DNA of 64,000 bases from Candidatus Aminicenantales bacterium. GTDB lineage: Bacteria > Acidobacteriota > Aminicenantia > Aminicenantales > UBA8522. The stretch lies in contig JBAUIH010000209.1 in the NCBI GenBank assembly GCA_049682755.1, positions 208 through 64,207 on the forward strand, written 5' to 3'. Numbering within the stretch: the stretch's first letter is position 1; each line of letters opens with the position of its first letter. The position numbers and the translations under genes were made by a program. Positions 9,583 through 23,657 of this stretch are shown in pieces. The notes under the pieces are model-generated. The model ran no database searches. It saw only the letters and a program-made list of their open reading frames with translations, and had not been told where the DNA came from.

Positions 9583-9598
9583 GGCTAATCTTTGCAGG

Positions 9599-9669
9599 TC
9601 CGGTCTAATTAAAGTTTCTTTAATTAGACCGGAGCTACTTAAAGGATAACGCCTTTTCCTTTAATAAGC
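9599..9669. promoter_or_regulatory. Operator-like module: 35-nt perfect palindrome plus TTATTAAAG-type half sites, 16 nt upstream of the fic ATG
   Basis: tccggtctaattaaag-ttt-ctttaattagaccgga (9599-9633), then cttaaaggataa and cctttaataagc. The module is collinear with the first ~65 bp of the 415-bp elements at 10481 and 13521. Confidence 0.5.
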
Positions 9670-9704
9670 AAGGGGATTTTAAATTGGTCTTTACCTTCCT
9701 TTTT

Positions 9705-10322
9705 TCATACACTCCAGCTGTATAACAAAGCCTCCAGATATGGTCTCATGACGTTCCAAACCCGGCATATCTTGGCATATTGATAGACCTCGTCGGAGGT
9801 GGCCTTCTTCTCACGAAGACATTCCCTGGCGGCTTCGATGGCGGCCTCAAGGCCGATACGATTTCGGAACTTGAAGCAGTCAGCGACGGTTTTCGCTGGG
9901 CTGTAGATCTTGACTGCGACTCCCTCTATCTGATGTTCATCGATCCCTTCGGAAAAGGACGGTCCGGAGAATCGAACGATTGACACCGGAGGATAGGAAA
10001 GGTGCGGTTGAGCGCTCCCCCTTCTGAGTGCCAGCCAGACCTTCCGGGGAAGTTGGGTGCCGATGTTATGATAACGCAGGGCGGAGGTCAAGCAGATGAC
10101 GCCCTTCGGAATTCGCTTTCCGATGATCGCAAAATTATGAAACTCGGTGATTTCCGAATCAGCCAGGACGTAGAGACCCCTTTCTGGACGAACAAGGAGT
10201 CCCTTGGTCACCAGCCTGCGGGCATACTCTGGATGAATATTCCGTTCAAGAAGATCCTTAATGCGGATTGTCCCCAGTTGTTTGGCCAGCTCGATGATGA
10301 CCTGCTCCGTGGATTTTTCCAT
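9705..10322 (-). CDS. AbiEi-like (type IV TA antitoxin family) wHTH protein, copy 1; no AbiEii partner
   Basis: ~205 aa, with RGLYVLAD, VICLTSALRYH and TVADCFKFRNRIG motifs typical of AbiEi_4/COG5340 proteins. I prefer the ATG at 10322 (the ORF track starts at TTG 10331). Confidence 0.75.
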   Translation of the reverse strand: MEKSTEQVIIELAKQLGTIRIKDLLERNIHPEYARRLVTKGLLVRPERGLYVLADSEITEFHNFAIIGKRIPKGVICLTSALRYHNIGTQLPRKVWLALRRGSAQPHLSYPPVSIVRFSGPSFSEGIDEHQIEGVAVKIYSPAKTVADCFKFRNRIGLEAAIEAARECLREKKATSDEVYQYAKICRVWNVMRPYLEALLYSWSV

Positions 10323-10329
10323 GTGTAAC

Positions 10330-10357
10330 AATATATATATATATCAATAAATGTCAA
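10330..10357 (-). promoter_or_regulatory. Sigma70-like promoter of abiEi-like copy 1 (TTGACA-N16-TATATT), near-leaderless
   Basis: The minus strand reads TTGACAtttattgatatatatatatattgttacacATG. The -10 ends 7 nt before the ATG, there is no SD, and an (AT)7 tract occupies the spacer and -10 region. Confidence 0.5.
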
Positions 10358-10480
10358 TACTTTTACACGTGATCGAAGTTTGGAAGAGCGCAGGCGAATT
10401 TGACAAATCCTCGGTAATCATATGCATTTACCTGGGAAATGCAAGTGCTCCTTCAGGATAAGTCGGGGCTTTTACTGGCG

Positions 10481-10895
10481 TTATTAAAGATACTTTAATA
10501 AGCCCACTGCTTATTAAGGGATAAAGGCTTATCCTTTAATAACGATTCTGGATAGAACTGCCATCACTTGCGTACAACTGATGGCAGTTTTATCCGGAGG
10601 TGTCCAATTTGCCCTCTTAACTTTGCGCATGCTGAACCCTGCTTATCGCCGGGGCGGAAAGCATTCGGCTATCAGACGCTCAGGACAAGGTCCCACTGCG
10701 ACCATGAAAATCGAACACTCAGTGATGGATTTTCATGGTATGATTCGACAGTTTTATGTTTCGATTTTAGCGTCGACCGCGACTGAAACATGGCCCCACA
10801 TCCAGCTTTCTCCTCATAAGCATACTTCCTAGGCCCCAACTTGTTACTTGTCAGAAGGAATGCGTTAGCCTAAAATTAAACTGCAGTTTGAGGGC
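10481..10895. repeat. 415-bp conserved non-coding element, copy 1
   Basis: Gapless alignment to 13521-13935. Perfectly conserved blocks include tatcctttaataacgattctggatagaa and ctgcgaccatgaaaatcgaacactc. There is a 12-bp-stem hairpin at 10701-10739. No conserved ORF is present. Confidence 0.8.
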
Positions 10896-11046
10896 ATATC
10901 TTAATGAATTATGCAAAGGAGCAATCTCCCCCCTATTTTGATTTTTGCACGGAGATACGCGATGCCTAAGCGTACGAATGAGTTCCAGCAACTGGTCATG
11001 AGAATGTATAAACAGATGGCGGGTCCCGGCGACGTTGAACCCGGCC

Positions 11047-12099
11047 TTAGGTTTTTTTGCCTGATCCGAGCCAGCCTTGTTCGGCAAGTCGTGTCCACGC
11101 AATATGAATGTGCTCAGGTTTGAACATTTTCTGCTTCCTCTCGTTCCATTTATGAACTGCTCGAACGGCTTCATTAGGATTCGAAACCGTGGTTTCCCCA
11201 TGAACCGCTATCCAATGCACCGACGAGAGAAGCTCCAATCCGTACGGAGTTTCAAACCCTTCAATCACCGTCGCGACCCGTTTTAACCTGTCGGCAGAAG
11301 CTTCGTTACCCGAAAGGGATTTGTCTGACTCTTTAATCGCCCCCGGCAAAAGCTCGATCTCGACATCAGGTTTCTGGGTGTCCCCGTATCCTCTGATAAA
11401 GTGTCCTTCCATAATCTCGAGAACTTTGTTCAGGTTGTGGGCATAGGGTCCAAATAGTCCGGCTTCATATCTCAATCGAAGGGGCTCTCCCGCTTCCTGC
11501 AGGAAGTATGCCATTTTCTGAACTTCAAGGAGGGTTAGGCGATAGGCCAATTGGGCATATTGATGGATTAGCCTGATGAGCAGCGCCCTGGCGATTGTCA
11601 TCCTTGGCCGCTTAGTGCGAACGGGCATAGCCCTGGCATCAGGCGTGCCAATGGGCTCAAATAGCATTACACGTGTGTTTGGCAAAGCAGCAAATGCTCC
11701 CTCTATAAGGGGCTTCACGTCTTTCCAGTTTAGCCCTCCAAGCCCGCATCCTAACGGAGGTAGAGCAACAGAAGAAATGCCGAGCTTTCTAATCTCTTCG
11801 ATAAGAGATCTTAATCCAATTCGAACATCTTCGATTTGTGACTTTGCCCTCCAATCGCGCTTAGTCGGGAAATTGACAATATATTTTGGATTGACCAGCG
11901 AACCGGTAGAGAAGACAAATACCTTCCCCGGCCTTATTCCGTTCGCCCGGCAGGCTCGTTCGTAAGCTTTAAAGTTATCGGGGAAGGCTTTCTTAAATTG
12001 AAGGGCTATGCCCTTGCCCATATATCCGACGCAATTGACTGTGTTTACTAATGCCTCCGCATCGGTTTCAATCAGATTCCCCCGAGTGATCTCGATCAT
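11047..12099 (-). CDS. darG: DarG antitoxin (macrodomain ADP-ribosyl hydrolase + C-terminal DarT-binding region)
   Basis: The N-terminal macro domain MIEITRGNLIETDAEALVNTVNCVGYMGKGIALQFKKAFP...PPLGCGLGG is followed by a ~190-aa C-terminal domain. The gene starts 13 nt after darT. Confidence 0.85.
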   Translation of the reverse strand: MIEITRGNLIETDAEALVNTVNCVGYMGKGIALQFKKAFPDNFKAYERACRANGIRPGKVFVFSTGSLVNPKYIVNFPTKRDWRAKSQIEDVRIGLRSLIEEIRKLGISSVALPPLGCGLGGLNWKDVKPLIEGAFAALPNTRVMLFEPIGTPDARAMPVRTKRPRMTIARALLIRLIHQYAQLAYRLTLLEVQKMAYFLQEAGEPLRLRYEAGLFGPYAHNLNKVLEIMEGHFIRGYGDTQKPDVEIELLPGAIKESDKSLSGNEASADRLKRVATVIEGFETPYGLELLSSVHWIAVHGETTVSNPNEAVRAVHKWNERKQKMFKPEHIHIAWTRLAEQGWLGSGKKT

Positions 12100-12112
12100 T
12101 TTGTTGCCCCGA

Positions 12113-12757
12113 CTAATAATACCATTCCGGTTTGATAATTACCATTGGGCGGAGCGATAAAGGGAAACTTCCCAGGATTCGCTCCACCGAGGATTTTATC
12201 CTTGTATTAATAACGGCAATTTTCTTGATAAATTGAAAATCGCATCGCCGATGTACCAAAAACTCAGCCTGTTTTCGGCGCTGCCGATCCATATCGTCTA
12301 CTGTATCATTCCAAGCAGTGGCATAAATTGTATTCCAATCTAATCTTCCAAGATCGGCAAGGTCGTCATACCAACTTGTATAGAAAGCGATGCCGTGCCC
12401 ATCAGAAAAAACAAAGGGGGTGCCGCCTTGATGAATGCTTTGGGCTGTAGAAATTAGATAGATCAAAGGCTCCTGGCCTCCCTGATAATCGGCAATCCTG
12501 CCCGTATGGAGTTGATATAGCATCGGAGATCGTGGGCCGAAATAAAATGAAACGTAATCATGGATTACGCCCCCTGACCCACACGGAATTGTTGTTACCT
12601 GCCTGAGTTGCTGTATTTCTATGTTATGGATTGCCCTATAGAGTAGTCTATTTTTTGGCATGTAGTTGGGCGCATGGAGCGCTCTTCTACGTAAGCATAC
12701 GGACAGATTGTCAACGTGTATGAAACGGAAAATTGGGGTCGGGATAGGAACAGTCAC
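12113..12757 (-). CDS. darT: DarT (DUF4433) ssDNA thymidine ADP-ribosyltransferase toxin
   Basis: IFRFIHVDNL..., YVSFYFGPRSPMLY and RRKQAEFLVH motifs are characteristic of DUF4433/DarT. GTG start with GAGG upstream. Confidence 0.85.
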   Translation of the reverse strand: MTVPIPTPIFRFIHVDNLSVCLRRRALHAPNYMPKNRLLYRAIHNIEIQQLRQVTTIPCGSGGVIHDYVSFYFGPRSPMLYQLHTGRIADYQGGQEPLIYLISTAQSIHQGGTPFVFSDGHGIAFYTSWYDDLADLGRLDWNTIYATAWNDTVDDMDRQRRKQAEFLVHRRCDFQFIKKIAVINTRIKSSVERILGSFPLSLRPMVIIKPEWYY

Positions 12758-12849
12758 TTCATTGCCTCATGTCCTATGTTGATTCAGCCTGTGCAGGGAG
12801 CAGAAATCAAACCGGACAGAATGGGCCATGTTCGTCGGATTCCGAACGC

Positions 12850-13458
12850 TCATTGAATGGCCTCAAGGTAAGGGAGCATGACCTGTTTCATCCGCAGGAG
12901 CGCGGCATAGTCCAGGATCTCGGAAATCGTGCAGACGCCTCGACGCTGACTAAGCCGCAGGGCTTCGACAGCGATATCGATTCCGATCCTGTTGCGGAAC
13001 TTGAAACAATCCACGATGGTTCGGGCTGGAGCGTAGATACGGACCTTGAATCCATCGACATCGTGAATTTCGATCCCAAGCTTATGAATTTCGCGAGAAA
13101 ATCTGTATATCCTCATAGGAGGAAAATCCAGGCGTGGGGTTTTTGTCCCGCGAGGAAGGGCCATGTCGACCCAATGGGGAACTTGAGTTGTTATTCCGTG
13201 AAAAGACAGTGAAGAAATAAGACAAATAACCGCGCCCGGAACTCGGGCGGCTACCACTGAGAGGTCGGGATTCCCCAGGTCAGGTAAGTCGGCCAGCCGA
13301 TACAGGCCGCGGCTCAGAGGAACGATCCGGCCGCTTGCGCGCAGCGAGTAGAGACTTCTCGGGTGTATGCCCTCGGCAATGGCCTGGGATGTCCGGAGAG
13401 TACCCCCTTGCTCTCGGAACATCTTTTCTGCCTCTTCTTCACGTGTCCGGTATCGCAT
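12850..13458 (-). CDS. AbiEi-like wHTH protein, copy 2; no AbiEii partner
   Basis: Same family as 9705-10322 (RGLYRLAD, VICLISSLSFH, TIVDCFKFRNRIG). About 43% aa identity to copy 1 by hand alignment (76/175). Confidence 0.75.
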   Translation of the reverse strand: MRYRTREEEAEKMFREQGGTLRTSQAIAEGIHPRSLYSLRASGRIVPLSRGLYRLADLPDLGNPDLSVVAARVPGAVICLISSLSFHGITTQVPHWVDMALPRGTKTPRLDFPPMRIYRFSREIHKLGIEIHDVDGFKVRIYAPARTIVDCFKFRNRIGIDIAVEALRLSQRRGVCTISEILDYAALLRMKQVMLPYLEAIQ

Positions 13459-13466
13459 AATGGATA

Positions 13467-13496
13467 ATTATGCCATCACATATATATAATTGTCAA
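13467..13496 (-). promoter_or_regulatory. Sigma70-like promoter of abiEi-like copy 2 (TTGACA-N18-CATAAT), near-leaderless
   Basis: The minus strand reads TTGACAattatatatatgtgatggCATAATtatccattATG. The -10 ends 8 nt before the ATG, and the spacer again contains a TA-repeat tract. Confidence 0.45.
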
Positions 13497-13520
13497 CCTT
13501 TTTATCCATTTCAAATTAAC

Positions 13521-13935
13521 CAATTAAAGAAACTTTAATAAGCCAGCTGCTTATTAAAGGATGCCGACCTATCCTTTAATAACGATTCTGGATAGAAATG
13601 CCATCACTTATGCATAAGTGTAGCCATTCTTATCCGGAAGCGTCGGAGTTGGGCTTTTAGCTTTGCTAATGCTGCACCCGGGTTACCGCCAGAAGGGCGA
13701 GTATTTGGCCATCGGACGCTCAGGATAATGTCTCTCTGCGACCATGAAAATCGAACACTCCGCGATGGATTTTCATGGTATTGACCAAATATCTTAGGTG
13801 TCGATTTTAGCGCTAGCCGCGACTGAAACGTGGCCGAGCATACACCTTTCTCTTCTCAATTGGATATTCAGGCCGGCGACTTGTTACTTGCCATATAACC
13901 TGGGTCATCCTAAAATGATACTGCAGTATGAGGGC
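13521..13935. repeat. 415-bp conserved non-coding element, copy 2
   Basis: See 10481-10895. The hairpin lies at 13741-13779, at the identical offset (+220). The operator-like module 13521-13583 lies only ~27 bp from the abiEi-2 -35 box. Confidence 0.8.
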
Positions 13936-14125
13936 CTACCGGATGGAATCGTCCGAAATATAGAGCCCCCAAGGATAGGAAAACCGGACCGGCAATGAAT
14001 TCCCTCCTATTAACGAGCGGTACGGAAGTGGCCTTGGCGCGGATAATATGGATAACAAATTATTAGGGCTCCATTATCTCGGTATTACTGACTGCTGCAA
14101 TCAGCTGTGATAGGATTAATTCAAA

Positions 14126-14815
14126 ATGAGCAGGCAGCTTACAGCAGAAGAGGCCAAACGAAGCTTTATCGAATCCATGGGCGATCCTCTGGGAAGGCTA
14201 TTTTATGCATTATGGCAGGAATTGGCAGGGCTTTATGCGAAGTGGGAGGAATACCTCGTGCTTTACGGAACAAAAGAATCACGAATAAATCTTCTGAACA
14301 AAGCCGCTCCCCTCTTCTTTCGAATAATCCAAGATGTTCTTTGGGAGGACATAATTCTCCACATTGCGCGGTTAACTGATCCTCCAAAATCCTCTGGAAA
14401 GGCCACCCTCACAATTAGAAGGCTTCCCGATTTGGTAAAGGATGGCAATACAGCTCAGGCTTTAAGGGGACTTATCAATATCGCGATACAGTCATCAGAA
14501 TTTTGTCGCGATTGCCGGAATCGGTATATCGCGCATAGAGACCTCAACCTTGCTCTTGAGAAAGAGATTGTTCCCTTGAAGCCCGCTAGTAGAAAAAAAA
14601 TCAAAGAAGCTCTCAATTCCATTGCCGAAGTGCTTAACGCGGTTTCGCAACATTATACAGATTCGGAGATGACATTTGATATTGGTGAAGATCCCGAAGG
14701 AGCGGTTTCGCTCCTATATGTAATCGATGATGGATTGAAAGCAGGAGAAGAACGTAAAGAACGTATAAGTAGCGGTAAATATCGGAAGGACGATTTTAGT
14801 CCTCGCGATTTGTAG
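14126..14815 (+). CDS. HEPN-domain protein, AbiU2-like (putative abortive-infection RNase)
   Basis: LLNKAAPLFFRIIQDVLWEDIILHIARLTDP, then CRNRYIAHRD (R-x5-H, the HEPN Rx4-6H motif). This pattern matches what I recall for the HEPN_AbiU2 family. Confidence 0.55.
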   Translation: MSRQLTAEEAKRSFIESMGDPLGRLFYALWQELAGLYAKWEEYLVLYGTKESRINLLNKAAPLFFRIIQDVLWEDIILHIARLTDPPKSSGKATLTIRRLPDLVKDGNTAQALRGLINIAIQSSEFCRDCRNRYIAHRDLNLALEKEIVPLKPASRKKIKEALNSIAEVLNAVSQHYTDSEMTFDIGEDPEGAVSLLYVIDDGLKAGEERKERISSGKYRKDDFSPRDL

Positions 14816-14995
14816 CTATCACCTTAATAATTAAATTAGCAGACCAGCCGCAGATTTCGTTTTGAAGCCAAGTTTCGAAGATTGAAACGGGGCGTCATTA
14901 AGGAGAAGCGCACGACACCTGCGCGCATTCCGAGCGCGCAGGTGGCTAGGGAGTTCAGTGCGTACGTCGCTTGGAGTTTATAAAGGGAGACTTAG

Positions 14996-15850
14996 ATGGG
15001 GCATCATTATGTACCTCGAAAATATCTGAGAGGTTTTGCGGATCCGAACAATCCTGGAAAGATTTGGATGTATGATAAGCATTCCCATCGGTTCACGCAT
15101 GCTAGCATTATATCCGTTGCTCAAGAGGCGAGTTACTATAGCGAGGATGCAGAGAGGCAGCTCAGCGAGTTTGTCGAGGGTCCTGCCCATAAGGTTCTTA
15201 AGAAGCTTCGATGCGGGGATTCTATCAATGATAACGAGCGTATGAGGCTTGCGCTATATGTAGCGACAATGTTGATGAGGGTGCCGCGGCGACGCAGAAA
15301 AGCTTTCGAGATGCTTCCCAGCGTGCGCGAGGATGTAATCAACCGAGCTACTCTTATTATTACTCAATGGGCTAAAACCAGCATGGTCGCCCCCGCACTT
15401 AAGCTTAAGAGATTTGCTGAACTAGAGCGAGCACGCGAAAAGCTGCGAGCCCAGCCACCGGAAGAGGTTGTAAAGAAGATTCGGGCTCCTTGGCCAAGTG
15501 AGAAAGTATTAGCGTGCGTTATCGGTATGACTTGGCGGATCGCGTCGGCCGGTGACGCCGGGTTTTTTCTCACCTCGGATAATCCAGCATTTTTTTTCGA
15601 AGCCTATGGACTCGGCAGGCCCGAATCAGAGCTGACATTTCCTCTTGCATCTGAACTGGCACTGCTAGGTAGTTGGCAGGGAGCGCCTAATGAAACAATT
15701 TTTGTCAAAGCGAAGCCATCGCTCATGAAGGAAGTCAATCGTCGAATCGCAAGCGGCGCTGAGCGCTTTGTTTTCTATCGCGGCCGTGAAGACTGGGTGG
15801 CTCAGCTTGCGGAAAGGCGGAACCTCCGCCTTAATCGCATTATTTGGTAA
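14996..15850 (+). CDS. DUF4238 family protein
   Basis: The N-terminal HHYVPRKYLRGF is the DUF4238 signature, and FFLTSDNP occurs later. Coordinates are taken from the ORF track. Confidence 0.65.
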   Translation: MGHHYVPRKYLRGFADPNNPGKIWMYDKHSHRFTHASIISVAQEASYYSEDAERQLSEFVEGPAHKVLKKLRCGDSINDNERMRLALYVATMLMRVPRRRRKAFEMLPSVREDVINRATLIITQWAKTSMVAPALKLKRFAELERAREKLRAQPPEEVVKKIRAPWPSEKVLACVIGMTWRIASAGDAGFFLTSDNPAFFFEAYGLGRPESELTFPLASELALLGSWQGAPNETIFVKAKPSLMKEVNRRIASGAERFVFYRGREDWVAQLAERRNLRLNRIIW

Positions 15851-16254
15851 ATGGAGTGCTGGCTAATATTATCCGCTTCTCGCCCACCACGCGTTAAAAG
15901 AAAAGCCAAGTTTCTTAGAAAAGAGGATAAATTATCTCCTCAAGGAAGTGAGCGCCCCAATTTATCAAGATAACTAGCGTTGCTGGTACTTCTAACGGGG
16001 GAGGCGAAAAGCTGCGGTAATTTATCCCAAATCAGGGCGATTATAAAAAGTAAAATTCTAGAGCCCTCTACACGAGAGTTTGCGTTCTGACATATATAGT
16101 TCTAAGATAGTATGGAAGAGGAGGGTTATTATAACAATGCAGTTTTATGAAAAACGGTTTTCCAACTTAGGGGTCAGTCCATTGGACTAAAAAGCGTCCC
16201 GGCTATTTCTATTAGTGCAGGACGCAAGCATCCCATAGACCGGAGGCATATACA

Positions 16255-16449
16255 ATGACAGCAGCACCCAAAATACAAGGATTACCTGACGTACCCACCC
16301 TGGTGTTCGAGACGTTTCTTGAGGCACTTCAGCAGGCGGGGGCGTCAGATGAGTTGATCATTCGGCTTCGCAAGACTCTTACGGAGGAAAAGAAATTCAC
16401 CGAGCGCGCCTTAAAGGATACTGTCCTCCCGGAGGAGTCACTAACATGA
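16255..16449 (+). CDS. Small hypothetical protein (64 aa), translationally coupled to the downstream ATPase
   Basis: GGAGG lies 8 nt upstream of the ATG. The stop overlaps the ATPase start (ATGA at 16446-16449). Helical, acidic composition; I recognise no family. Confidence 0.5.
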   Translation: MTAAPKIQGLPDVPTLVFETFLEALQQAGASDELIIRLRKTLTEEKKFTERALKDTVLPEESLT

Positions 16450-18902
16450 TTAGGGTCGAATCTATCACAATCAGTGAGTTTCGCGGAATCCGAAACTTGA
16501 CGCTGGATCTTAACGAAAAGAGCTTTGCTGTTTGTGGCCCAAACGGCACGGGAAAGAGCGGGGTGGTTGACGCCTTGGAGTTCGCGCTGACCGGAAATGT
16601 ATCCCGGCTCTCTGGAGAGGGCAGAGGTGAAGTTTCCCTGAAACAGCACGGACCCCACGTGGACAGACGGAATGATCCTGACAGGGCCCGCGTGAGATTA
16701 AAGATCACAATCCCAAGCCTGAATAAGTCCGTCACTATCGAGCGCAGCTTAAAGAATCCGGGGGCTGCCCAAGTGGCGCCGGCCGAGCCCTTAGTATTTG
16801 ACGTACTTCGTCAGGTTGAGGCGCATCCCGAGATTGTGCTTTCGCGCAGGGAGTTGATACGCTACGTTCTTGCTACGCCCGGCAAACGCGCCGAGGAAGT
16901 TCAGGCGCTGCTCCACCTTGACCAAGTCGAACAGGTCAGAGGTGTTCTGCAGAAAATCGCGAATGCCTGCGAGAAGCAACTAGGTCCTCTGAGCGCAGCG
17001 GCCAAAGAAGCCGGCGATAATTTGTTGCGTGCACTGGGGATTTCCGAATTGGTAAAGGAAAAGGTGCTGGCCGCGACAAACACCCAGCGGGCGAGTCTTG
17101 GTCTCCCTCCACTGACAGACCTGACTGAAACAACATCCCTCAAGGACGGGATGGCGACACCGGCACCGGCTCAGCCTCGCCGCATCTCCAAGGTCCAAGC
17201 CCTCACTGATATTCGAGCCACCCGTGAGGTTCTCTCAGAAATTGCCAGCGAGGAAACAAGAAACCTTGTTACTGAAGTGATATCTGATCTCAATACGCTT
17301 GCTGCGGATCCAGCAATTGTTGCAGGCTTGAAACGAGAAGCTTTCTTTGCCACCGGGATGGAACTGGCTGAGACAGGAGCCTGTCCTCTTTGCGATACAC
17401 CATGGGACCTTATTGAACTAAAGAAATACATTCAGGCCAAGATCGATTATATGAAAGAGCTATCGCGTAAGCGCGGAGCGGCAGAAAAAAAGATTGCTCC
17501 GCTTATCGTAACACTGCGCAAGGTGAAGGCTGGAATGGAAACACTGATCGGTTACGGCGAGTTCGCAACTCCGACGTTGGTTATGAAAACTGCCCGAGCC
17601 TATACTAGCGATTGCGCAAATGCGGTCGATAGGCTAACGGCCTTACTTCCACTTGATGAAGCGACCAAGGTGCTCAGGAATGTGCCGATCATCCAGCAAA
17701 CTGTTCTAGACTCCATAAGAGAGCTTGAACAAGTGGTTGTTGCGCTCCCTGAGCCAACAAAGCTGGACGCAGCAAGGGATTGGCTTGCCGTCGCGCAAGA
17801 GAGACTTGAGAAATGGCGCGATGTCATGCGGAAAAATAAGACCGCCAGGGAACAAGCCCAGAGAACACGACAAGTATCTGATATTTATGCTGCCTCCAGC
17901 GATAAAGTTCTCGCAGGGATCTATGCAAGTGTGGAAAAGGACTTTTCTTTGCTTTACAGCTTCCTTAACCGCGAGGACGAAGAAAAGTTTAATGCTAAAC
18001 TAATTCCGTCATTAGGAAAGCTCGGCTTCGATGTTGACTTTTACGGACGTGGCTTTTTCCCGCCCGGTGCTTATCACAGTGAAGGCCATCAAGATAGCAT
18101 GGGCGTATGTTTATACCTAGCATTGATGAAACACCTCCAAGGCGAGAACTTTACTTTGGCTGTGCTTGACGACGTCCTTATGTCGGTGGACACGGGCCAT
18201 CGGCGGGAGGTCTGTTCCCTATTAAAGAAGGAATTTCCGAACACTCAATTCGTAATTACCACACATGACCCCATCTGGCTGCGTCACCTGAAAACCGAAG
18301 GTATTATTGGAGGAAAATCATCGGTGCATTTCAGAAAGTGGAGCATTAACCAGGGGCCGACACGATGGGATATGCGGGATGTATGGAGTGAGATCGAGGA
18401 ATCCATAGAGGAAAACGACATACGTGCAGCCGCCTCACTCCTCAGGTATTACCTTGAGTATGAGTCGGCTGAACTATGTCAGAGGTTGCGCGCCCTAGTT
18501 GAGTTTCGTGGCGATGCACAATATCAACTTGGCGATCTTCTTCCCCCAGCGATCATTCGGATGCGCAATCTTTTTCGTCAAGGGAAGGCTGCTGCCAATT
18601 CCTGGAACCAGAAGGAGATAATCGAACAGCTTGCCACACGCGAGGCCGAATTCGCTAAGGTGGCGACGGCCTCAAGAGTTGAGCAATGGCAAATGAACGC
18701 ATCGATACACTATAACTCCTGGGACAACCTATGCAAAGAGGACTTTGTACCTGTAGCGAAAGCGTTCCGGGACCTCCTCCAAGGATATATGTGCCGGGAT
18801 TGTGGAGAGTATCTCCGTGTCTCCCCAGAACGTAATGCAGGCGAGTCGATCCGTTGCGAATGCGGGAAAACTACGTTTAACCTCCTTGGAAAAAGCGGGT
18901 AG
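16446..18902 (+). CDS. SMC/Rad50-like ABC ATPase with CxxC zinc hook and C-terminal R-x3-E...H + 4-Cys ribbon tail (RloC-like)
   Basis: Walker A GPNGTGKS (aa 31-38). Signature-like YHSEGHQDS (543-551). Walker B LAVLDDVLMSVD (571-582). ITTHD (604-608). CPLC at aa 313-316, midway through the helical insert. Tail motifs LLRYYLEYE, NASIHYNSW and CRDC-x17-CEC. Confidence 0.85.
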   Translation: MIRVESITISEFRGIRNLTLDLNEKSFAVCGPNGTGKSGVVDALEFALTGNVSRLSGEGRGEVSLKQHGPHVDRRNDPDRARVRLKITIPSLNKSVTIERSLKNPGAAQVAPAEPLVFDVLRQVEAHPEIVLSRRELIRYVLATPGKRAEEVQALLHLDQVEQVRGVLQKIANACEKQLGPLSAAAKEAGDNLLRALGISELVKEKVLAATNTQRASLGLPPLTDLTETTSLKDGMATPAPAQPRRISKVQALTDIRATREVLSEIASEETRNLVTEVISDLNTLAADPAIVAGLKREAFFATGMELAETGACPLCDTPWDLIELKKYIQAKIDYMKELSRKRGAAEKKIAPLIVTLRKVKAGMETLIGYGEFATPTLVMKTARAYTSDCANAVDRLTALLPLDEATKVLRNVPIIQQTVLDSIRELEQVVVALPEPTKLDAARDWLAVAQERLEKWRDVMRKNKTAREQAQRTRQVSDIYAASSDKVLAGIYASVEKDFSLLYSFLNREDEEKFNAKLIPSLGKLGFDVDFYGRGFFPPGAYHSEGHQDSMGVCLYLALMKHLQGENFTLAVLDDVLMSVDTGHRREVCSLLKKEFPNTQFVITTHDPIWLRHLKTEGIIGGKSSVHFRKWSINQGPTRWDMRDVWSEIEESIEENDIRAAASLLRYYLEYESAELCQRLRALVEFRGDAQYQLGDLLPPAIIRMRNLFRQGKAAANSWNQKEIIEQLATREAEFAKVATASRVEQWQMNASIHYNSWDNLCKEDFVPVAKAFRDLLQGYMCRDCGEYLRVSPERNAGESIRCECGKTTFNLLGKSG

Positions 18903-19048
18903 TCGAGGAAAGTCGGCGACCTAAAAATCTTGCTGGCTGACGGGACGCCCCCTATGGGCTATATGGCTTATCCATGTGATGAAGCCGGAACTATTATTCC
19001 CTATTAATAACTCAGTTAGCAGGGCAAATCATCCCAATACGAAAACTT

Positions 19049-19705
19049 TTATTCCTGCTCTACGAGTTCGCAATAATCCGCTGCCATTTCAGGTATAATC
19101 TCCTCAAGAATGTCGCAAAATAATCCTGATAATTCGGTTAGCTTTTTCGCTAGGATCTTAAATTTATCTACATATGATAAATCCTCACCTTTTACTAAGC
19201 CCACAATAAATCGAAGATTCAGGCTATCGGCCAACAGAAATCGCATATCCTTTACTTGTTCAGTATTCCCTGCCAAGAAGATCATGTCTTCATTCTCACG
19301 AATGCAATCATCAATAAACTCAGCCAATTCATGAGTGATGACTTGCTTGTCGAAATGAAAAGCAACTTTCCTGCGAATATTGTGTAATATTTCATTAATA
19401 AATGAATTATCTCTATCTGCGAGCTTTTCAATTTTCTCAATGTTTTTTTTGTACGATTCCAAATATTTCAGGCTCTCCCCTAAGGTATTAAACTTTTTTA
19501 TTCCTTCATAGAGCACGGCGGCATGATTTATAACCAGATTAAGCTGAAGATTTGTGTCGAAATCTCCCCTTTCACTTAGCAGTGCATAAATTACTTTGTT
19601 ATACTGGATTGCGCTTAATATCCTACATAGTTGGATCGATTCAAGAAAACGTGGCTCCGTTTTTAATAATGGCAAGGATTCTTTTTTTGCTCGCAGCCGT
19701 ATCAT
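19049..19705 (-). CDS. Hypothetical protein with HEPN-like Rx4-6H motif (possible divergent AbiU2-like)
   Basis: Strong SD (GGGAGGAcaaaATG). This is the most AT-rich gene in the window. IRRKVAFHFD (R-x4/5-H) and LNLVINHAAVLYEGI parallel INLLNKAAPLFFRII / RNRYIAHRD in 14126-14815. Confidence 0.55.
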   Translation of the reverse strand: MIRLRAKKESLPLLKTEPRFLESIQLCRILSAIQYNKVIYALLSERGDFDTNLQLNLVINHAAVLYEGIKKFNTLGESLKYLESYKKNIEKIEKLADRDNSFINEILHNIRRKVAFHFDKQVITHELAEFIDDCIRENEDMIFLAGNTEQVKDMRFLLADSLNLRFIVGLVKGEDLSYVDKFKILAKKLTELSGLFCDILEEIIPEMAADYCELVEQE

Positions 19706-19781
19706 TTTGTCCTCCCGGAGATTGACCAGAATGCACTTATTTTTTGATGCGCAATATTTAATTTATTAAAATCCTTTTGGT

Positions 19782-21146
19782 CTAGGAAAGATCACGGACG
19801 TCGATCTTTCCCGTCACAGCTGCAGAAACGATTGCCGTGCGGTATTCCTTGAGGCGGTCGATTGCTTCCCGAATCGTTGACACGAGTATAGCGATCCTTG
19901 TCGTTTCTCTATTAAGAAAAGATATTATTGTCCCTTGTTGTGCGGCTGACGGCAGAGGTATTAAGGTATCGGCGATCAACTCGATTTCTAAGCTCTCGAC
20001 TGTTGCGCCCTCTTTTCTCCAGGCGATTAAGAGAGGAGATTGCATGCCTGAAATAAAGTAAGCCAAGTATTCCGGGACAACTGCGGCATCAGCTTGCAAA
20101 GCCTTAAGGTCTTGATTTAGCGTGATCTCAGAACCCGATAATCCGACGGGAATACTATGATTAAGGATTCCAGAGCGAACCACGATTAGCACGGTGCCAG
20201 CGGCAATAATCCTTGTCGCACTCCTGGCGACAGCTTCTTCAGTAATCTTATCGATAGTATCCGAGACGATCCATCTCTTCATGTCCTTCGGTGAAACCCA
20301 TGGAATTTCACCTTGCCAATAGTCTAAATTATCTTTGCTCGGAGTACCACCTCCCAAGAAACGAACGATATGTTTCAGCCTTATCATCCGCCAGCCAGCA
20401 GGGATCTTCCCCAGCCATTCGATGCCGGAGTCTTTCATGGGGACGTTTGGGTCGAGGCCTTTGGTGACGGCTTGGGTGATGAGGGCAGTGCGCTTTTCCT
20501 GATGGAGTTCGATCAATCGCTCCTTTTTCGCTATGAGCGCATCGATCTTCGCCGCCTGGCCATTAAGGAAGAATACGATGGCCTTTTGTTCTTCTATTGG
20601 GGGTAGCAGTACAGGGAGGGATTCTACCTTTTCAGCGGTAAAATGACTGATCGTGGCTCTACTGCAGAGCATATCTATGTAGCCTGAGTGTTTGAGTGCA
20701 TAGAGCCAATAGTATAGGTAATCTGTAAGGTCTATTCCTTTTGCGCGGACCCGATTGATTGCATTTTGATAGTAGCATGGCATAATTTCGCCGCGCCAGA
20801 TTGCCGATCGACCTACGTCTCCACCTTCGCTTATAAGAAGATCTCCGGCGCAGAGCGCTAACCCGTCCTTTTCGCTTGAAGAGATCCACATGTGCTTCAC
20901 ATCTTCTATGCTTACTCCATTCCAGGCAAGATTCGCAGCACGGAGGTAGGGCTCTAGCGAGTCATCGGACCTTAGAGGTTCATTTTGAAGCATTTTTCCT
21001 AAGTTGACGTCAAAACTCCTTTTTAAAGGAGCCATGGTCCAGCCGCTCGGGATCTCTGTTAACCACTCGGCGCCGGAATCTTTGTATTCTGGGTACGGTT
21101 TAAACCTTCGGCCGGTAATTTTGGGAAAAGATGGTGCTCCCCCCAT
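19782..21146 (-). CDS. hsdS: Type I R-M specificity subunit
   Basis: Two TRD-like halves are separated by the conserved helical spacer LPPIEEQKAIVFFLNGQAAKIDALIAKKERLIELHQEKRTALITQAVTKG. A second copy of the spacer lies at the C-terminus (LPLPSAAQQGTIISFLNRETTRI...AAVTGKIDV). Confidence 0.9.
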   Translation of the reverse strand: MGGAPSFPKITGRRFKPYPEYKDSGAEWLTEIPSGWTMAPLKRSFDVNLGKMLQNEPLRSDDSLEPYLRAANLAWNGVSIEDVKHMWISSSEKDGLALCAGDLLISEGGDVGRSAIWRGEIMPCYYQNAINRVRAKGIDLTDYLYYWLYALKHSGYIDMLCSRATISHFTAEKVESLPVLLPPIEEQKAIVFFLNGQAAKIDALIAKKERLIELHQEKRTALITQAVTKGLDPNVPMKDSGIEWLGKIPAGWRMIRLKHIVRFLGGGTPSKDNLDYWQGEIPWVSPKDMKRWIVSDTIDKITEEAVARSATRIIAAGTVLIVVRSGILNHSIPVGLSGSEITLNQDLKALQADAAVVPEYLAYFISGMQSPLLIAWRKEGATVESLEIELIADTLIPLPSAAQQGTIISFLNRETTRIAILVSTIREAIDRLKEYRTAIVSAAVTGKIDVRDLS

Positions 21147-21554: not shown

Positions 21555-23657
21555 TCAATTCTTCATTTCCTCGAGCATTCGCATTATGTCCTGTTCGATG
21601 GCACGGATATCCGCCTCGATTTCTTCGAGTGGACGCGGCGGCGTGTACTTGTAGAAGTATCGGTTGAAGTTGATCTCGTAGCCGATGATACCCACCAGGC
21701 CGTCCTTGGCGTCGCGCCTGGAGGTGTCGATCCAGGCGTCGGGGACGTGAGGCTTTACTTCGCGCTCGAAGAAGGCGTGAACGCTGGACGGGACGCCTCG
21801 TTCGTCTGCCGGGTCGGCCCAATCCAAGAGCGAAACGCTCTCGGTATCGCGCAGATCAGGGTCGGGTTCCGGATTCCCGTCTTTGTCCAGGCAGGTCGAG
21901 GCGGTTTCATCCCGCTCGGACAGGGCCGAGAGGACTGCCTTCAGAATCGGCGTCGGGAGCTTAAGGCCGGCTTTTCTTGCCGCGCCTTGGAGAAAAGCCA
22001 GAAATGCTTCCCTGTCCTTATAAAGCGTGGCCGGAAGAGAACGGAGGAGGACGAGGATTGCTTTCTGAAATTTCCTGCCGTCCTCCTCCTCCCTGGCGGC
22101 GGCTTCGCCTTTCTTTTTGGACTGCGCCAGGCCCTGGAAGGCCTTTTCCTCCTCGAGCCGCGCGATTCGCTCTGCGCTTGCCTGGAAATTGAGCTTAAGC
22201 GGTCGCTCGACCGTGATCTTCCGGAAACCGAAGTGCGTCGTCGGATAAATCTTGACGAACTCGCCTTCTTCAAACGAGCGCAAGAGCCGCAGGATCTCTC
22301 CTGCCTTTTCGGGGGGAACTTCACGTCTCTTGTCGCCGAGACTCTTCCTCATCGGTGACCAGAAGGAGGTGGCATCGATGAGTTGGACTTTGCCCTTTCG
22401 CTCCGGAGCTTTGCGGTTGGTGAGCACCCAGACATAGGTGGCGATACCCGTGTTGTAAAAAAGCTGCTCCGGAAGGGCGACCAGGGCCTCGAGCCAATCG
22501 TTCTCTAGGATGAAGCGGCGGATCTCGCTCTCGCCGCTCCCGGCGTCGCCGGTGAAGAGGGGTGACCCGTTCATGATGATGGCCAGGCGCGAGCCGCCGT
22601 CCTTCTGTTCCTTCATGTGGGCCAGCATGTGGAGGAGGAACAGAAGCTGGCCGTCGCTGATCCGCGGCAAGCCCGGGCCGAACCGGCCGGATAGACCGCG
22701 CTCGTGCTCGGTGACCACGGCTTCCTCGTCGCGCTTCCAATCCTTTCCGTAGGGAGGGTTGGTGATCAGGTAATCGAAGTTGCGGCCGGCATGACGGTCG
22801 TTCGAGAGTGTTGTTCCGAAGACGATGTTCTCGGCATCCCGGCCGTCGGTCGATTTCATGAACAGGTCGGACTTGCAGAGGGCGAATGTCTCGGGGTTCA
22901 CTTCCTGGCCGAAGAGGTGGATATCCGCCTCCGGGTTGATCGGCTCGCGGATGAGGGTATCGTTTTTGCGCCTGCCGGACAGGATATGACCTTTCGATAT
23001 CGTGAGCATGCCGCCCGAACCGCAGCATGGATCATACACGGTGACGACAACGCCCTGGCGCCGGATTCTATCCTCATCGCCCGCAAGGAGCAGGTCGACC
23101 ATGAGGTGGACGACATCGCGGGGGGTGAAGTGCTCGCCGGGATTCTCGTTTAGCGCTTCGTTGAACTTCCGGATCAGCTCTTCAAAAATCGTCCCCATGG
23201 TGGGATTGTCGACTTTATCGGGGTGGAGGTCGACATTCTTGAACCGTTCTAGAACCTGGAAAAGCAGCCCCGCCTCATCGAGCTTGGAGATGGTGTTGTC
23301 GAAATCGAATTTCTCGAGGACTTCGCGCATGTTCGGGCTGAAGCCGGCGATGTAATTGCGGAGGTTTGAGGCCAGGTGGGGGGCGTCGGCCAGGAGCTTG
23401 TCGAAATCGTATCGAGAGGTATTGTAAAAGGCAAACCCTGCGGCCTTGCGAAGCTGCGGGTCGAGGTTCTCGAGTTTTTTATCTTTGAGCTTGGCCTGAG
23501 TCTCGAGAACGTGCTCCTTGGTCGGCGCGAGGACACAGTCGAGTCGGCGGAGAACCGTCAACGGCAGGATCACATCCTGGTATTTGCCGCGTTTGAACGT
23601 GTCCCGGATGAGGTCGGCGACGCCCCAGAGGAAGCTGACGATTTCGCTATGATTCAA
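21555..23657 (-). CDS. hsdM: Type I R-M DNA methyltransferase subunit (N6-adenine)
   Basis: HsdM_N-type N-terminus (FLWGVADLIRD...). SAM-binding VYDPCCGSGGML. Catalytic ITNPPYG. Long C-terminal extension. TTG start with GGAG upstream. Confidence 0.95.
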   Translation of the reverse strand: MNHSEIVSFLWGVADLIRDTFKRGKYQDVILPLTVLRRLDCVLAPTKEHVLETQAKLKDKKLENLDPQLRKAAGFAFYNTSRYDFDKLLADAPHLASNLRNYIAGFSPNMREVLEKFDFDNTISKLDEAGLLFQVLERFKNVDLHPDKVDNPTMGTIFEELIRKFNEALNENPGEHFTPRDVVHLMVDLLLAGDEDRIRRQGVVVTVYDPCCGSGGMLTISKGHILSGRRKNDTLIREPINPEADIHLFGQEVNPETFALCKSDLFMKSTDGRDAENIVFGTTLSNDRHAGRNFDYLITNPPYGKDWKRDEEAVVTEHERGLSGRFGPGLPRISDGQLLFLLHMLAHMKEQKDGGSRLAIIMNGSPLFTGDAGSGESEIRRFILENDWLEALVALPEQLFYNTGIATYVWVLTNRKAPERKGKVQLIDATSFWSPMRKSLGDKRREVPPEKAGEILRLLRSFEEGEFVKIYPTTHFGFRKITVERPLKLNFQASAERIARLEEEKAFQGLAQSKKKGEAAAREEEDGRKFQKAILVLLRSLPATLYKDREAFLAFLQGAARKAGLKLPTPILKAVLSALSERDETASTCLDKDGNPEPDPDLRDTESVSLLDWADPADERGVPSSVHAFFEREVKPHVPDAWIDTSRRDAKDGLVGIIGYEINFNRYFYKYTPPRPLEEIEADIRAIEQDIMRMLEEMKN

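Follow-up and report, generated by a model that had tools for sequence, protein, structure and literature searches.

The window analysed here, a 64,000-nucleotide stretch of DNA from a Candidatus Aminicenantales bacterium, contains two overlapping ORFs that we confirmed on the + strand, one of 64 aa (16255–16449) and one of 818 aa (16446–18902), which together make up a compact cassette of two genes in 2.65 kb. All features of the cassette given with coordinates below lie on this strand. The small ORF is preceded by a Shine–Dalgarno sequence, GGAGG (16242–16246), 8 nt 5' of its ATG at 16255, and CGGAGGCA at this site is retained in two other loci, L078 and L079. The two ORFs share an ATGA start/stop overlap (16446–16449), indicative of translational coupling. 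The initial annotation had recorded both of these signals, and both can be read in the sequence.

A second Shine–Dalgarno sequence, GGAGGAG (16431–16437), is absent from that annotation; it lies 8 nt 5' of the ATG of the larger gene, inside the final codons of the small ORF, which encode PEE in the window and GEE in the family consensus. GAGGAG is found 5' of the NTGA junction in most loci. Ahead of the pair, the window shares with L078 and L079 a block, TTGCGT–17 nt–TAAGAT (16080–16108), that we tentatively regard as a candidate promoter. The block was too weak to score in a scan for consensus promoters, and its conservation is weak evidence because the three loci are close relatives.

The large protein is an SMC/Rad50-class ATPase with a zinc hook

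The 818-aa protein belongs to the SMC/Rad50 class of coiled-coil ABC ATPases; it carries a conserved CPxC hook and, beyond the ATPase, a C-terminal domain. It matches Pfam SMC_N with 57.2 bits (cut-off 40) over residues 4–609 and AAA_23 with 56.2 bits, and a Foldseek search with the full-length model retrieved the SMC head, Lamassu LmuB (9hqu), Rad50, cohesin and JetC (9qxx), with E-values of about 1e-10 to 1e-6 (7.6e-10 to 1e-6 for SMC, LmuB, Rad50 and JetC). Together with the conservation of the hook, these matches bear out the earlier description of a Rad50/RloC-like zinc-hook ATPase.

The ATPase head is split. Its N-terminal half contains the Walker A motif, GPNGTGKS (aa 31–38; 16536–16559), in which G31, N33, G34, G36, K37 and S38 are invariant. 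In the AlphaFold secondary structure an ascending helical arm (aa 158–309; 16917–17372), which includes a conserved unstructured loop at about 218–248 (SLKDGMATP), leads to the hook, and a descending arm (aa 322–507; 17409–17966) leads away from it, so that the hook loop (310–321) is flanked by two long helical arms. At the apex lies CPLC (aa 313–316; 17382–17393), of which C313, P314 and C316 are invariant, as are D317 and W320 that follow. The C-terminal half of the head comprises the invariant ABC signature region YHSEGHQDS (aa 543–551; 18072–18098), the Walker B motif and D-loop LAVLDDVLMSVD (aa 571–582; 18156–18191), with L574, D575, D576, S580 and D582 invariant, and an H-loop, ITTHD (aa 604–608; 18255–18269), that is conserved in the alignment. 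The catalytic motifs and the hook are kept in 93–95 of 97 representatives (the hook in 95), and Walker A is counted in all 97 full-length ones. Every motif noticed at the outset, in the split ABC head, the hook and the tail, is thus present; all are invariant or nearly so in our alignments, so that they are not due to chance.

The C-terminal tail carries near-invariant residues and a predicted zinc ribbon

The tail is modelled as a helical bundle followed by a zinc ribbon. The helical domain (aa 643–779; 18372–18782) consists mainly of four long helices in an AlphaFold model of the tail (mean pLDDT 84.8; helices at tail positions 35–57, 71–95, 99–119 and 140–155), and these recur in the model of the full-length protein. 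In an alignment of 153 tails, R667-x3-E671 (18444–18458), in the first long helix, has its Arg in 150 and its Glu in 152. The loop between the third and fourth long helices contains W748-x2-N751-x3-H755-[YF]-N757-x-W759 (18687–18722), with H755 in all 153 aligned tails, N751 in 150 and W748 and W759 in 149 each. The ribbon, C783-x2-C786 ... C804-x-C806 (18792–18881), has its four Cys in about 149 of the 153 and is predicted to form three short strands (791–793, 801–803 and 810–812); Foldseek gave only low-probability local matches for it, to zinc ribbons such as that of RNA polymerase III C11. The spacings reported initially, 84 aa from the Glu to the His and CxxC-x17-CxC in the ribbon, proved correct on translation, and R667, E671 and H755, which had been singled out as key residues, are essentially invariant across 150 cluster representatives.

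The tail had also been called nuclease-like, and here the searches did not follow. Neither PrrC/RloC nor HEPN nor any nuclease fold was a significant match for the tail in Pfam (none at E ≤ 10), PDB profiles, Foldseek or PADLOC, which gave no other significant match either, and the sole HEPN structure in the Foldseek list was 2q00, at rank 36 with a probability of 0.2.

A relative from Hymenobacter has a different tail that bears on this question. It contains a canonical HEPN-type RNx4H motif, FIRNEVGAHFN, aligned with the N751–H755 loop, and is homologous (hhalign probability 82%, E 1e-5); tails of this sort are rare, with two sequences known. H755 is invariant, with N751 at −4; the canonical Arg is not kept in the family, the position aligned to it varying between A, Q, M, S and G. 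HEPN families that have the His and lack the Arg exist (PMC3710099), among them PaREP1/8 and c2405, and the helical domain of the window tail, as predicted, resembles these in being all-helical with four long helices, in having a conserved N-x3-H where the third helix gives way to the next loop, and in having a conserved acidic residue in an upstream helix. It differs from HEPN domains in that the canonical Arg is missing, an invariant Arg being found in the first helix instead, and in the appended zinc ribbon. Because the rare sister tail has a canonical RNx4H motif, we consider an HEPN-like RNase identity of the window tail plausible but unproven; since only this sister tail helps the case, 'nuclease-like' is here something that we infer.

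The small gene and the ATPase gene form a conserved operon

The 64-aa protein encoded by the first gene is acidic (net charge about −3) and has a helical, heptad-like pattern of hydrophobic residues; the consensus of its family is dVp.qvfe.Fl.aLe......E.a.RLrKtlled..ftE.aLr.A.fgee. It matched no family in Pfam, NCBIfam or PADLOC, antitoxin families included, and no DNA-binding autoregulator domain was recognised in it. Of 72 loci examined with an iterated HMM, 63 have a homologue of the small ORF directly 5' of the gene for the ATPase, and the 4-nt NTGA overlap is present in 48 of the 51 loci in which both ends could be placed. The neighbourhood search suggested in the initial annotation therefore shows that most homologues keep the small ORF, so that the partner is conserved as well as translationally coupled. 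No conserved third gene was found among 101 immediate neighbours. The small gene and the ATPase gene are a conserved, self-contained operon.

A 657-aa relative that lacks the tail altogether retains an overlapping small ORF 5' of its gene, which points to the small protein being a partner of the ATPase core. The small ORFs of this relative and of relatives with alternative tails have no detectable homology to that of the window.

Distribution and genomic setting

More than 1400 database relatives of the 818-aa protein were found, the best 120 of which are mostly ~818 aa long, are 61–95% identical and span bacteria of several phyla. The tail domain occurs in 679 protein clusters (50% identity) and forms the C-terminus in all of the 150 best cluster representatives, those of full length being ~815–825 aa. 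In a pattern-limited scan of 185,579 species genomes we found at least 65 loci, one per species representative. Hosts include many bacterial phyla and haloarchaea, and the family is found on chromosomes and on 34 plasmids, haloarchaeal ones included. No family member was found in phages and viral contigs, a result that is neutral with regard to a defence role. The cassette is real, widespread and without a name in known families, and the high sequence identity across phyla argues that it is horizontally mobile.

In the window, the pair sits inside a Type I restriction-modification (R-M) system, with hsdS/hsdM on one side and hsdR on the other, and has DarTG, AbiEi, AbiU2, DUF4238 and Fic among its neighbours; it is part of an island of low GC content (45–51%, as against 56–61% in the flanks). 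In Halorhabdus the pair is inserted between pglX and pglZ of BREX-5, and in Halobacterium it adjoins a DUF499–DUF1156–helicase cluster. Other loci adjoin TIR proteins and a DUF4011 helicase, AbiEi/AbiEii, or an N6-methylase and a patatin-like protein, and the immediate neighbours include BrxL, Hhe/PDC-S37, Mokosh, HmaB and an RT. Many loci sit among housekeeping genes, and some have RecT or conjugation genes nearby.

Comparison with named systems

In PADLOC v2 the pair and the tail match no named system, the only matches being generic ones to the ATPase head and the C-terminal half, and in NCBIfam no model was reached at its cut-off; the initial view that the pair falls outside named systems is thereby upheld. 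Three candidates were considered and rejected. For Lamassu, LmuB HMMs matched weakly, with 58 bits for the protein as a whole (highest in the N-terminal head) and 28 bits for the coiled coil and C-terminal half, and there are no LmuA or LmuC neighbours. For a Septu or retron-type PtuA–PtuB pair, the PtuA equivalog gave 47 bits against a cut-off of 500, and there is no HNH neighbour. For Rad50/SbcC–Mre11/SbcD, there is no conserved Mre11/SbcD neighbour, Metallophos domains being found in 2 of 101 neighbours and in none in the window.

RloC, the subject of Pfam AAA_13, is a Rad50-like zinc-hook ABC ATPase fused to an HEPN-type anticodon nuclease. The window family resembles it in being a single polypeptide of ~800 aa with Walker A near 40, a CxxC hook near 300 and Walker B near 575, in having a coiled-coil insert with the hook at its apex and a C-terminal domain of about 180–200 aa with conserved R, E and H, and in its defence contexts. 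It differs in the 84-aa spacing between Glu and His, the terminal four-Cys ribbon and the coupled gene for a partner of ~60 aa; RloC is not known to have a conserved small partner. Residues K37, C313 and D575/576 of the window protein can be compared with the landmarks K44, C291 and D572 of GkaRloC (PMC3458546); for RloC, a 'putative catalytic ACNase triad' is all that this paper mentions. The window protein scored 12 bits (E 0.083) against AAA_13, for which the gathering threshold is 36, with a match over 545–617; its relatives reached 26–35 bits, likewise below threshold, over the coiled coil and the C-terminal half of the ATPase. These alignments reach no further than profile position 579 of 713, which excludes the nuclease part, and never cover the tail, in which neither the AAA_13 profile nor PADLOC, with whatever RloC or PrrC models it may contain, detected a PrrC-type anticodon-nuclease domain. 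Of the RloC-like defence module originally proposed, the ATPase class, the hook, the location in an R-M locus and the coupled partner have stood, and for the nuclease identity of the tail the searches gave no support.

PrrC, an ABC ATPase–anticodon nuclease, is encoded within EcoprrI, a Type Ic R-M locus. The window pair has in common with it an ABC ATPase, a C-terminal effector (presumed here) and a position inside Type I R-M genes, and by analogy this placement suggests a second-line logic in which the module may respond once restriction is disabled. Unlike the window protein, however, PrrC has no coiled coil and no hook, and the window family is not tied to R-M, its neighbours ranging from BREX to housekeeping genes. 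No PrrC box or ACNase homology was detected in the window protein.

Coiled-coil SMC/Rad50-class ATPases with a small partner are also found in Lamassu (LmuB–LmuC–LmuA), Wadjet (JetC–JetA/B) and DndD or CxC-ABC systems with DndE, for all of which control of an effector by the ATPase has been proposed. In the window family the presumed effector is fused to the C-terminus of the ATPase, whereas in these systems it is encoded by a separate gene, and the small partner, of only ~60 aa, has no match among the kleisin, LmuC and DndE families. The hook, too, is of the CPxC (Rad50) type, in contrast to the CxC type of PbeC-like ATPases (PMC10853773).

A possible function for the module

The reading that we favour, to which we give slightly less than an even chance, is that the module is an abortive-infection or anti-phage system of the type in which an ABC ATPase is combined with a fused effector, with an HEPN-like RNase tail and a regulatory small subunit. 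In this scheme we infer that the module serves in defence and that its tail works as an RNase, as well as the trigger and what the small protein does and where it binds. As in Rad50 and RloC, two copies of the 818-aa protein would join at the ABC heads and at the CPxC zinc hook, and through ATP binding and hydrolysis the protein would sense a nucleic-acid cue, which might be DNA ends, foreign DNA or the failure of a neighbouring R-M or BREX system. Sensing would control the C-terminal domain, in which the Trp-flanked residues R667, E671, N751 and H755 of the helical bundle precede the four-Cys ribbon; this domain would serve as the effector and would most probably be an HEPN-like RNase that needs no metal ion and attacks tRNA or other RNA. 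The acidic helical 64-aa protein, presumably made in a fixed ratio to the ATPase through the NTGA overlap, would be a regulatory subunit bound to the core of the ATPase, sitting at its neck or head in the manner of a kleisin or of the Rad50-binding helices of Mre11, or acting as a brake on the effector.

A bolder form of this proposal seems possible to us, if doubtful: that the cassette is a minimal immune complex of bacteria and archaea, made up of an SMC-like sensor, a fused effector and a micro-partner, in which the R/E/N/H residues plus the zinc ribbon would be a new type of nuclease (an HEPN derivative with its catalytic Arg moved to another helix, or an unrelated fold) and the ~60-aa protein a gate resembling a kleisin or the Mre11 RBD. 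If the cassette is a defence system, ABC-ATPase-based immunity gains a broad family across bacteria, haloarchaea and plasmids; RloC would be the only other type known in which a fused effector is under the control of a Rad50-style zinc hook, and the cassette would add to the defence genes known from within Type I R-M and BREX operons. Its compactness, strong conservation and clear invariant residues make the cassette easy to test, and such work could reveal how movements of the hook and heads are passed on to an effector and what an obligate partner of ~60 aa contributes.

Alternative explanations

The tail may instead have no enzymatic activity and sense or bind nucleic acid, a nucleotide or a protein through its zinc ribbon and Trp-rich pocket, with the module acting by SMC-like, ATP-driven clamping or bridging of DNA, or by bringing in or switching on nucleases of the host or of the neighbourhood. 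We consider this rather unlikely, although several observations are in its favour: no nuclease fold or family was detected for the tail, a relative without the tail exists, the ATPase belongs to the class of SMC, Rad50 and LmuB, which entrap DNA, and the canonical HEPN Arg is missing, non-catalytic HEPN domains being known (PMC3710099). Nevertheless, there is neither a conserved partner nuclease nor a third gene, R, E, N and H stay invariant in 150 divergent clusters, as would be more usual for an active site, and the sister tail has a canonical, catalytic-type RNx4H motif. That the pair is a narrow toxin–antitoxin module, in which a labile antitoxin, the small acidic protein, directly masks a C-terminal toxin that is set free when the antitoxin is lost, is unlikely in our estimation. 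Such a pair would explain a small 5' ORF with a 4-nt overlap and a net negative charge, and the locus does lie among defence genes of the toxin–antitoxin type (DarTG, AbiEi), but a small upstream ORF persists in the relative that has no tail, and neither an antitoxin family nor a DNA-binding autoregulator domain was recognised in the small protein.

The R-x3-E ... H pattern of the tail resembles the Arg/Glu/His triad that the initial annotation gives for the PrrC/RloC anticodon nuclease, and Walker A, hook and Walker B follow one another at the same spacing as in GkaRloC; with the sub-threshold AAA_13 matches of the relatives (26–35 bits), this could make the protein a true though divergent RloC, an anticodon nuclease whose ACNase domain has been remodelled. 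We hold this to be very unlikely, given that the window protein itself reaches 12 bits against the required 36, that the alignment ends at 579 of 713, short of the nuclease part, that the tail has no PADLOC match and that RloC is not known to have a conserved small partner. The slightest chance attaches to a role in housekeeping or in the maintenance of mobile elements, through DNA repair, recombination or plasmid stability. The Rad50/SbcC-like head and hook, the presence on large plasmids and the RecT or conjugation genes that adjoin some loci are consistent with such a role, as is the RefSeq automatic GO term 'double-strand break repair', although this was assigned electronically, from the domain alone. 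Against it, there is no Mre11/SbcD partner, the distribution is sporadic (at least 65 loci among the 185,579 species genomes), the high identity across phyla implies horizontal transfer, and the pair is found repeatedly inside R-M, BREX and defence islands.

A translationally coupled gene pair

Both open reading frames that the initial annotation had read from the sequence alone were recovered on the + strand, at 16255..16449 (64 aa) and 16446..18902 (818 aa), together with the ATGA overlap between them (16446-16449) and the Shine-Dalgarno sequence GGAGG (16242-16246), spaced 8 nt from the first ATG. The residues that it had assigned to the ATPase (Walker A, CPLC hook, signature, Walker B/D-loop and H-loop) and to its C-terminal tail (R667/E671, H755 and C783/786/804/806) all lie where it had placed them. 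A second Shine-Dalgarno sequence, GGAGGAG (16431-16437, +), is located 8 nt 5' of the ATPase ATG, within the final codons of the small ORF. This arrangement is widely kept: of the 51 homologous loci in which both ends could be placed, 48 share the 4-nt overlap of start and stop codon (NTGA), and in most loci (L001-L067) GAGGAG is at once the ribosome-binding site of the ATPase gene and the codons of the GEE that ends the small protein. Part of the conservation of this C-terminus may reflect an RNA signal and not protein function. Such strict translational coupling implies a fixed stoichiometry of the small protein with the ATPase.

Rfam revealed no structured RNA around the pair. The leader 5' of the small gene contains a 17-codon mini-ORF (16137-16190, +) with its own GAGGAGGG ribosome-binding site; its start and ribosome-binding site are also kept in the close relatives L078 and L079, and its counterpart in L079 and in the homologous locus L080 is called as a 36-aa gene with a 4-nt overlap with the small-gene start. 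It may be a leader peptide or simply a conserved 5' UTR.

The zinc-hook ATPase and its small partner

Pfam SMC_N matched residues 4-609 of the large protein with 57 bits (cut-off 40), and AAA_23 also scored above its cut-off. The full-length AlphaFold model (mean pLDDT 76) has an ABC head and two helical arms (158-309 and 322-507) with the CPLC loop in between, and Foldseek matched it to SMC heads, Lamassu LmuB, Rad50, cohesin, condensin and JetC (E 1e-10 to 1e-6). Walker A, the CPxC hook, Walker B, the signature and the H-loop occur all together in 93 of 97 full-length cluster representatives, a pattern of residue conservation which indicates that the ATPase and the hook are under selection. 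The initial annotation had considered that the pair might already bear a name in PADLOC; PADLOC v2 and NCBIfam gave only generic matches to the head (mad3, PtuA, LmuB, RecF), far under the model cut-offs.

Conservation of the small ORF, which the initial annotation had put forward as a check, was borne out by an HMM built from four small proteins and then iterated: a homologue lies directly 5' of the ATPase gene in 63 of the 72 loci scanned, and most of those that lack it carry truncations or frameshifts. The conserved core of ∼55 residues (dVp.qvfe.Fl.aLe......E.a.RLrKtlled..ftE.aLr.A.fgee) follows a variable N-terminus and has the hydrophobic spacing of amphipathic helices. The small protein matched no known family, and RefSeq labels its gene 'hypothetical protein'. 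A ribbon-helix-helix fold, by analogy with DndE, is unsupported because the first ∼10 residues are variable and there is thus no conserved N-terminal strand; the HTH-like 'AGVS' turn is a visual resemblance only.

A 657-aa ATPase on a Halomontanus plasmid lacks the tail, yet is overlapped by a 58-aa upstream ORF. That a small ORF is retained in a tail-less relative speaks for a small protein that binds the ATPase core and against one that simply masks the tail, although weakly, because the small ORFs of the tail-less and alternative-tail relatives are not detectably homologous to that of the window. The ascending helical arm of the ATPase is interrupted by a stretch predicted to be unstructured (aa 218-248), yet with strongly conserved residues S231, K233, D234, G235, P244 and I247-K249. 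The small protein, or another ligand, may dock at this candidate site.

The tail is probably derived from a HEPN domain

The tail-only model (mean pLDDT 84.8) consists of four long helices (tail positions 35-57, 71-95, 99-119 and 140-155) followed by a three-stranded Zn ribbon. In an alignment of 150 representatives and two plasmid relatives, with counts given out of 153, H755 is present in all 153 sequences, E671 in 152, and R667 and N751 in 150 each; W748, N757, W759 and the four Cys are also essentially invariant. The initial annotation had proposed an HHpred or Foldseek comparison with PrrC/RloC and HEPN families. Foldseek searches of PDB and BFVD yielded no significant match (none at E<0.001); the weaker ones were to generic helix bundles or, locally, to Zn ribbons. 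Nor did the tail match Pfam at E<=10 or anything meaningful in PDB, by sequence or by profile; PADLOC gave one chance-level match. Reading H755-Y-N757 and the Cys pairs as an HNH/His-Me nuclease was rejected on two grounds: the prediction for the region is helix or loop and not a beta-beta-alpha finger, and the four Cys form a separate terminal ribbon.

A plasmid-borne Hymenobacter ATPase of 789 aa carries a different tail followed by a CPTC...CRC ribbon. This tail is homologous to that of the window (hhalign probability 82%, E 1e-5, 164 columns), and has FIRNEVGAHFN in place of the N-x3-H loop, a textbook HEPN Rx4-6H motif with a polar residue directly after the Arg. A homologue search with the Hymenobacter-type tail found one relative only, with the motif kept, which is too few for a family profile. 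In the hhalign alignment the HEPN Arg corresponds to a variable position (A/Q/M/S/G) of the window family, while R667 and E671 correspond to Glu and Asp, respectively, in the Hymenobacter tail. A survey of HEPN domains describes a conserved upstream acidic residue, and families, PaREP1 among them, that keep the H without the R (PMC3710099); PaREP1 (PDB 2q00) appears in the Foldseek list of the tail, at rank 36 with a probability of 0.2 only. We infer that the tail probably stems from a HEPN domain whose active site has been rearranged.

In Hymenobacter volaticus (L077, 7377-10739), genes for a 642-aa protein, which matches no family, and for an MBL-fold hydrolase lie 3' of the alternative-tail ATPase gene in the same direction, followed by a Mov34/MPN-family gene on the opposite strand. 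The system may exist here in a larger form with several genes.

The pair is widespread and probably a mobile cassette

Searches with the large protein found more than 1400 relatives, of which the best 120 are 61-95% identical and for the most part 814-827 aa long. Those with an NCBI name, in every case just 'AAA family ATPase', come from MAGs of Nitrospirota, Omnitrophota, Eisenbacteria and Betaproteobacteria. A tail-only query (aa 625-818) against 1.84 billion cluster representatives retrieved 679 clusters, and in 150/150 of the best representatives the tail is C-terminal; full-length ones have ∼815-825 aa, and those that are shorter seem to be fragments. At least 65 loci came from a pattern scan across species genomes, with Legionella anisa, Mesorhizobium, Sphingobium, Paracoccus and Variovorax among the cultured hosts. 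By tblastn, full-length copies reside on 34 plasmids, including haloarchaeal plasmids at 25-30% identity; none was found in INPHARED phages or IMG/VR viral contigs.

In Halorhabdus tiamatea the pair separates pglX from pglZ of a BREX-5 system, and in Halobacterium noricense it adjoins a DUF499-DUF1156-helicase cluster. Other loci have it beside genes for TIR proteins and a DUF4011 helicase, or beside AbiEi/AbiEii. A methylase and a patatin-like protein are encoded near it on a Rhizobium etli plasmid, and elsewhere it forms an insertion between genes for malate dehydrogenase and for succinate dehydrogenase. Among the 101 immediate neighbours, ordinary metabolic genes are mixed with defence genes (BrxL, Hhe/PDC-S37, Mokosh, HmaB, AbiEi, methyltransferases, a reverse transcriptase). 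Pfam and PADLOC on these neighbours, and phmmer with 19 candidates, identified no conserved third gene. Such surroundings are what one would expect of a mobile, self-sufficient cassette that has an apparent preference for defence loci. A very large DUF4011/AAA_11-12/MTES_1575/DUF3320 helicase-nuclease (PADLOC Hhe/PDC-S37 type) lies upstream of the pair in five independent loci (L004, L009, L047, L053, L059); it recurs, yet falls outside the core.

In L078 (3074-5529), the closest relative at 95% identity, the ATPase gene is broken into ORFs of 724 and 113 aa, and truncated copies are also found in L008, L024, L025, L034, L044, L054, L061 and L062. Either assembly errors or genuine decay of a gene that is costly to keep could account for this.

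A proposed RloC-like logic and its alternatives

The best-supported model for the pair follows the logic of RloC. The zinc-hook ABC ATPase would sense a cue from DNA or infection, and its ATP-driven head and hook rearrangements would switch on the C-terminal domain, probably an RNase, with the small subunit acting as a gate or adaptor. The likeness proposed by the initial annotation holds for the order and spacing of landmarks, as K37, C313 and D575/576 have close counterparts in K44, C291 and D572 of Geobacillus RloC (PMC3458546). In RloC, mutation of the hook is activating. It does not extend to the family profile: the RloC/PrrC Pfam family AAA_13 scores 12 bits for the window protein and 26-35 for relatives (cut-off 36), and the alignments end at profile position 579/713, short of the nuclease part. 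Moreover, the window family has an obligate micro-partner, which RloC is not known to have. A genuine yet very divergent RloC, for which the landmarks speak and these differences do not, seems very unlikely.

Alternatively, the tail may be non-catalytic, with the protein entrapping DNA in the manner of SMC complexes or recruiting other nucleases. The SMC-like matches of the full-length model are in line with this and the near-invariant R667, E671 and H755 are less so; we regard it as unlikely, though worth entertaining. A classical toxin–antitoxin relationship would suit the coupling of the two genes and sits less well with the small ORF of the tail-less Halomontanus ATPase, and we consider it distinctly improbable. 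Most doubtful of all is a role in DNA repair or plasmid maintenance: the pair is found on plasmids and resembles Rad50, whereas the Mre11/SbcD-type nuclease partner of Rad50-Mre11 and SbcCD is absent from it.

The pair is of a kind already known, both as an ABC ATPase with a fused effector and as a coiled-coil ATPase with a small partner. It differs in that it does not qualify as RloC/PrrC, Lamassu or Septu, in a tail without recognizable outside relatives, and in its obligate micro-partner. The searchable literature yielded no description of the pair, which may be catalogued in the ABC ATPase classification of Krishnan et al. (2020).

A probable defence island within the window restriction-modification locus

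The pair is located in a low-GC stretch interrupting a Type I R-M locus, flanked by hsdS/hsdM and hsdR. GC content is 45-51% across the block from hsdR to hsdS/hsdM (9000-21000), vs 56-61% in the flanks, and the block looks like a horizontally acquired island with at least six defence-type cassettes inside one R-M operon. From the right, hsdM (21555-23657, −) is followed by hsdS (19782-21146, −), a 218-aa ORF (19049-19705, −) convergent with the ATPase gene, the pair itself, a DUF4238 gene (+), a HEPN_AbiU2 gene (+), and DarT (12113-12757, −) and DarG (11047-12099, −) between two AbiEi genes (12850-13458, −, and 9705-10331, −); a Fic gene (−) and hsdR (4864-8421, −) complete the locus on the left. 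No AbiEii partner for the two AbiEi-type genes, which encode antitoxins or regulators, was found within the window; in L079 a similar AbiEi adjoins AbiEii. L078 has the same AbiU2-DUF4238-pair-218aa-hsdS arrangement.

The window HsdR ends in a Schlafen AlbA_2 domain (residues 1023-1160), an unusual HsdR fusion; bacterial Schlafen nucleases are reported as antiviral effectors in a 2026 paper (PMC13056530). The 218-aa ORF has very low GC (38.7% in the 19-20 kb bin), and its product matches no family of Pfam, NCBIfam or PADLOC. It shares 83% identity with the protein at the same position in L079, has a counterpart of equal length and position in L078, and is missing from more distant loci; it may be a separate defence gene of an unrecognized family, travelling with the pair.
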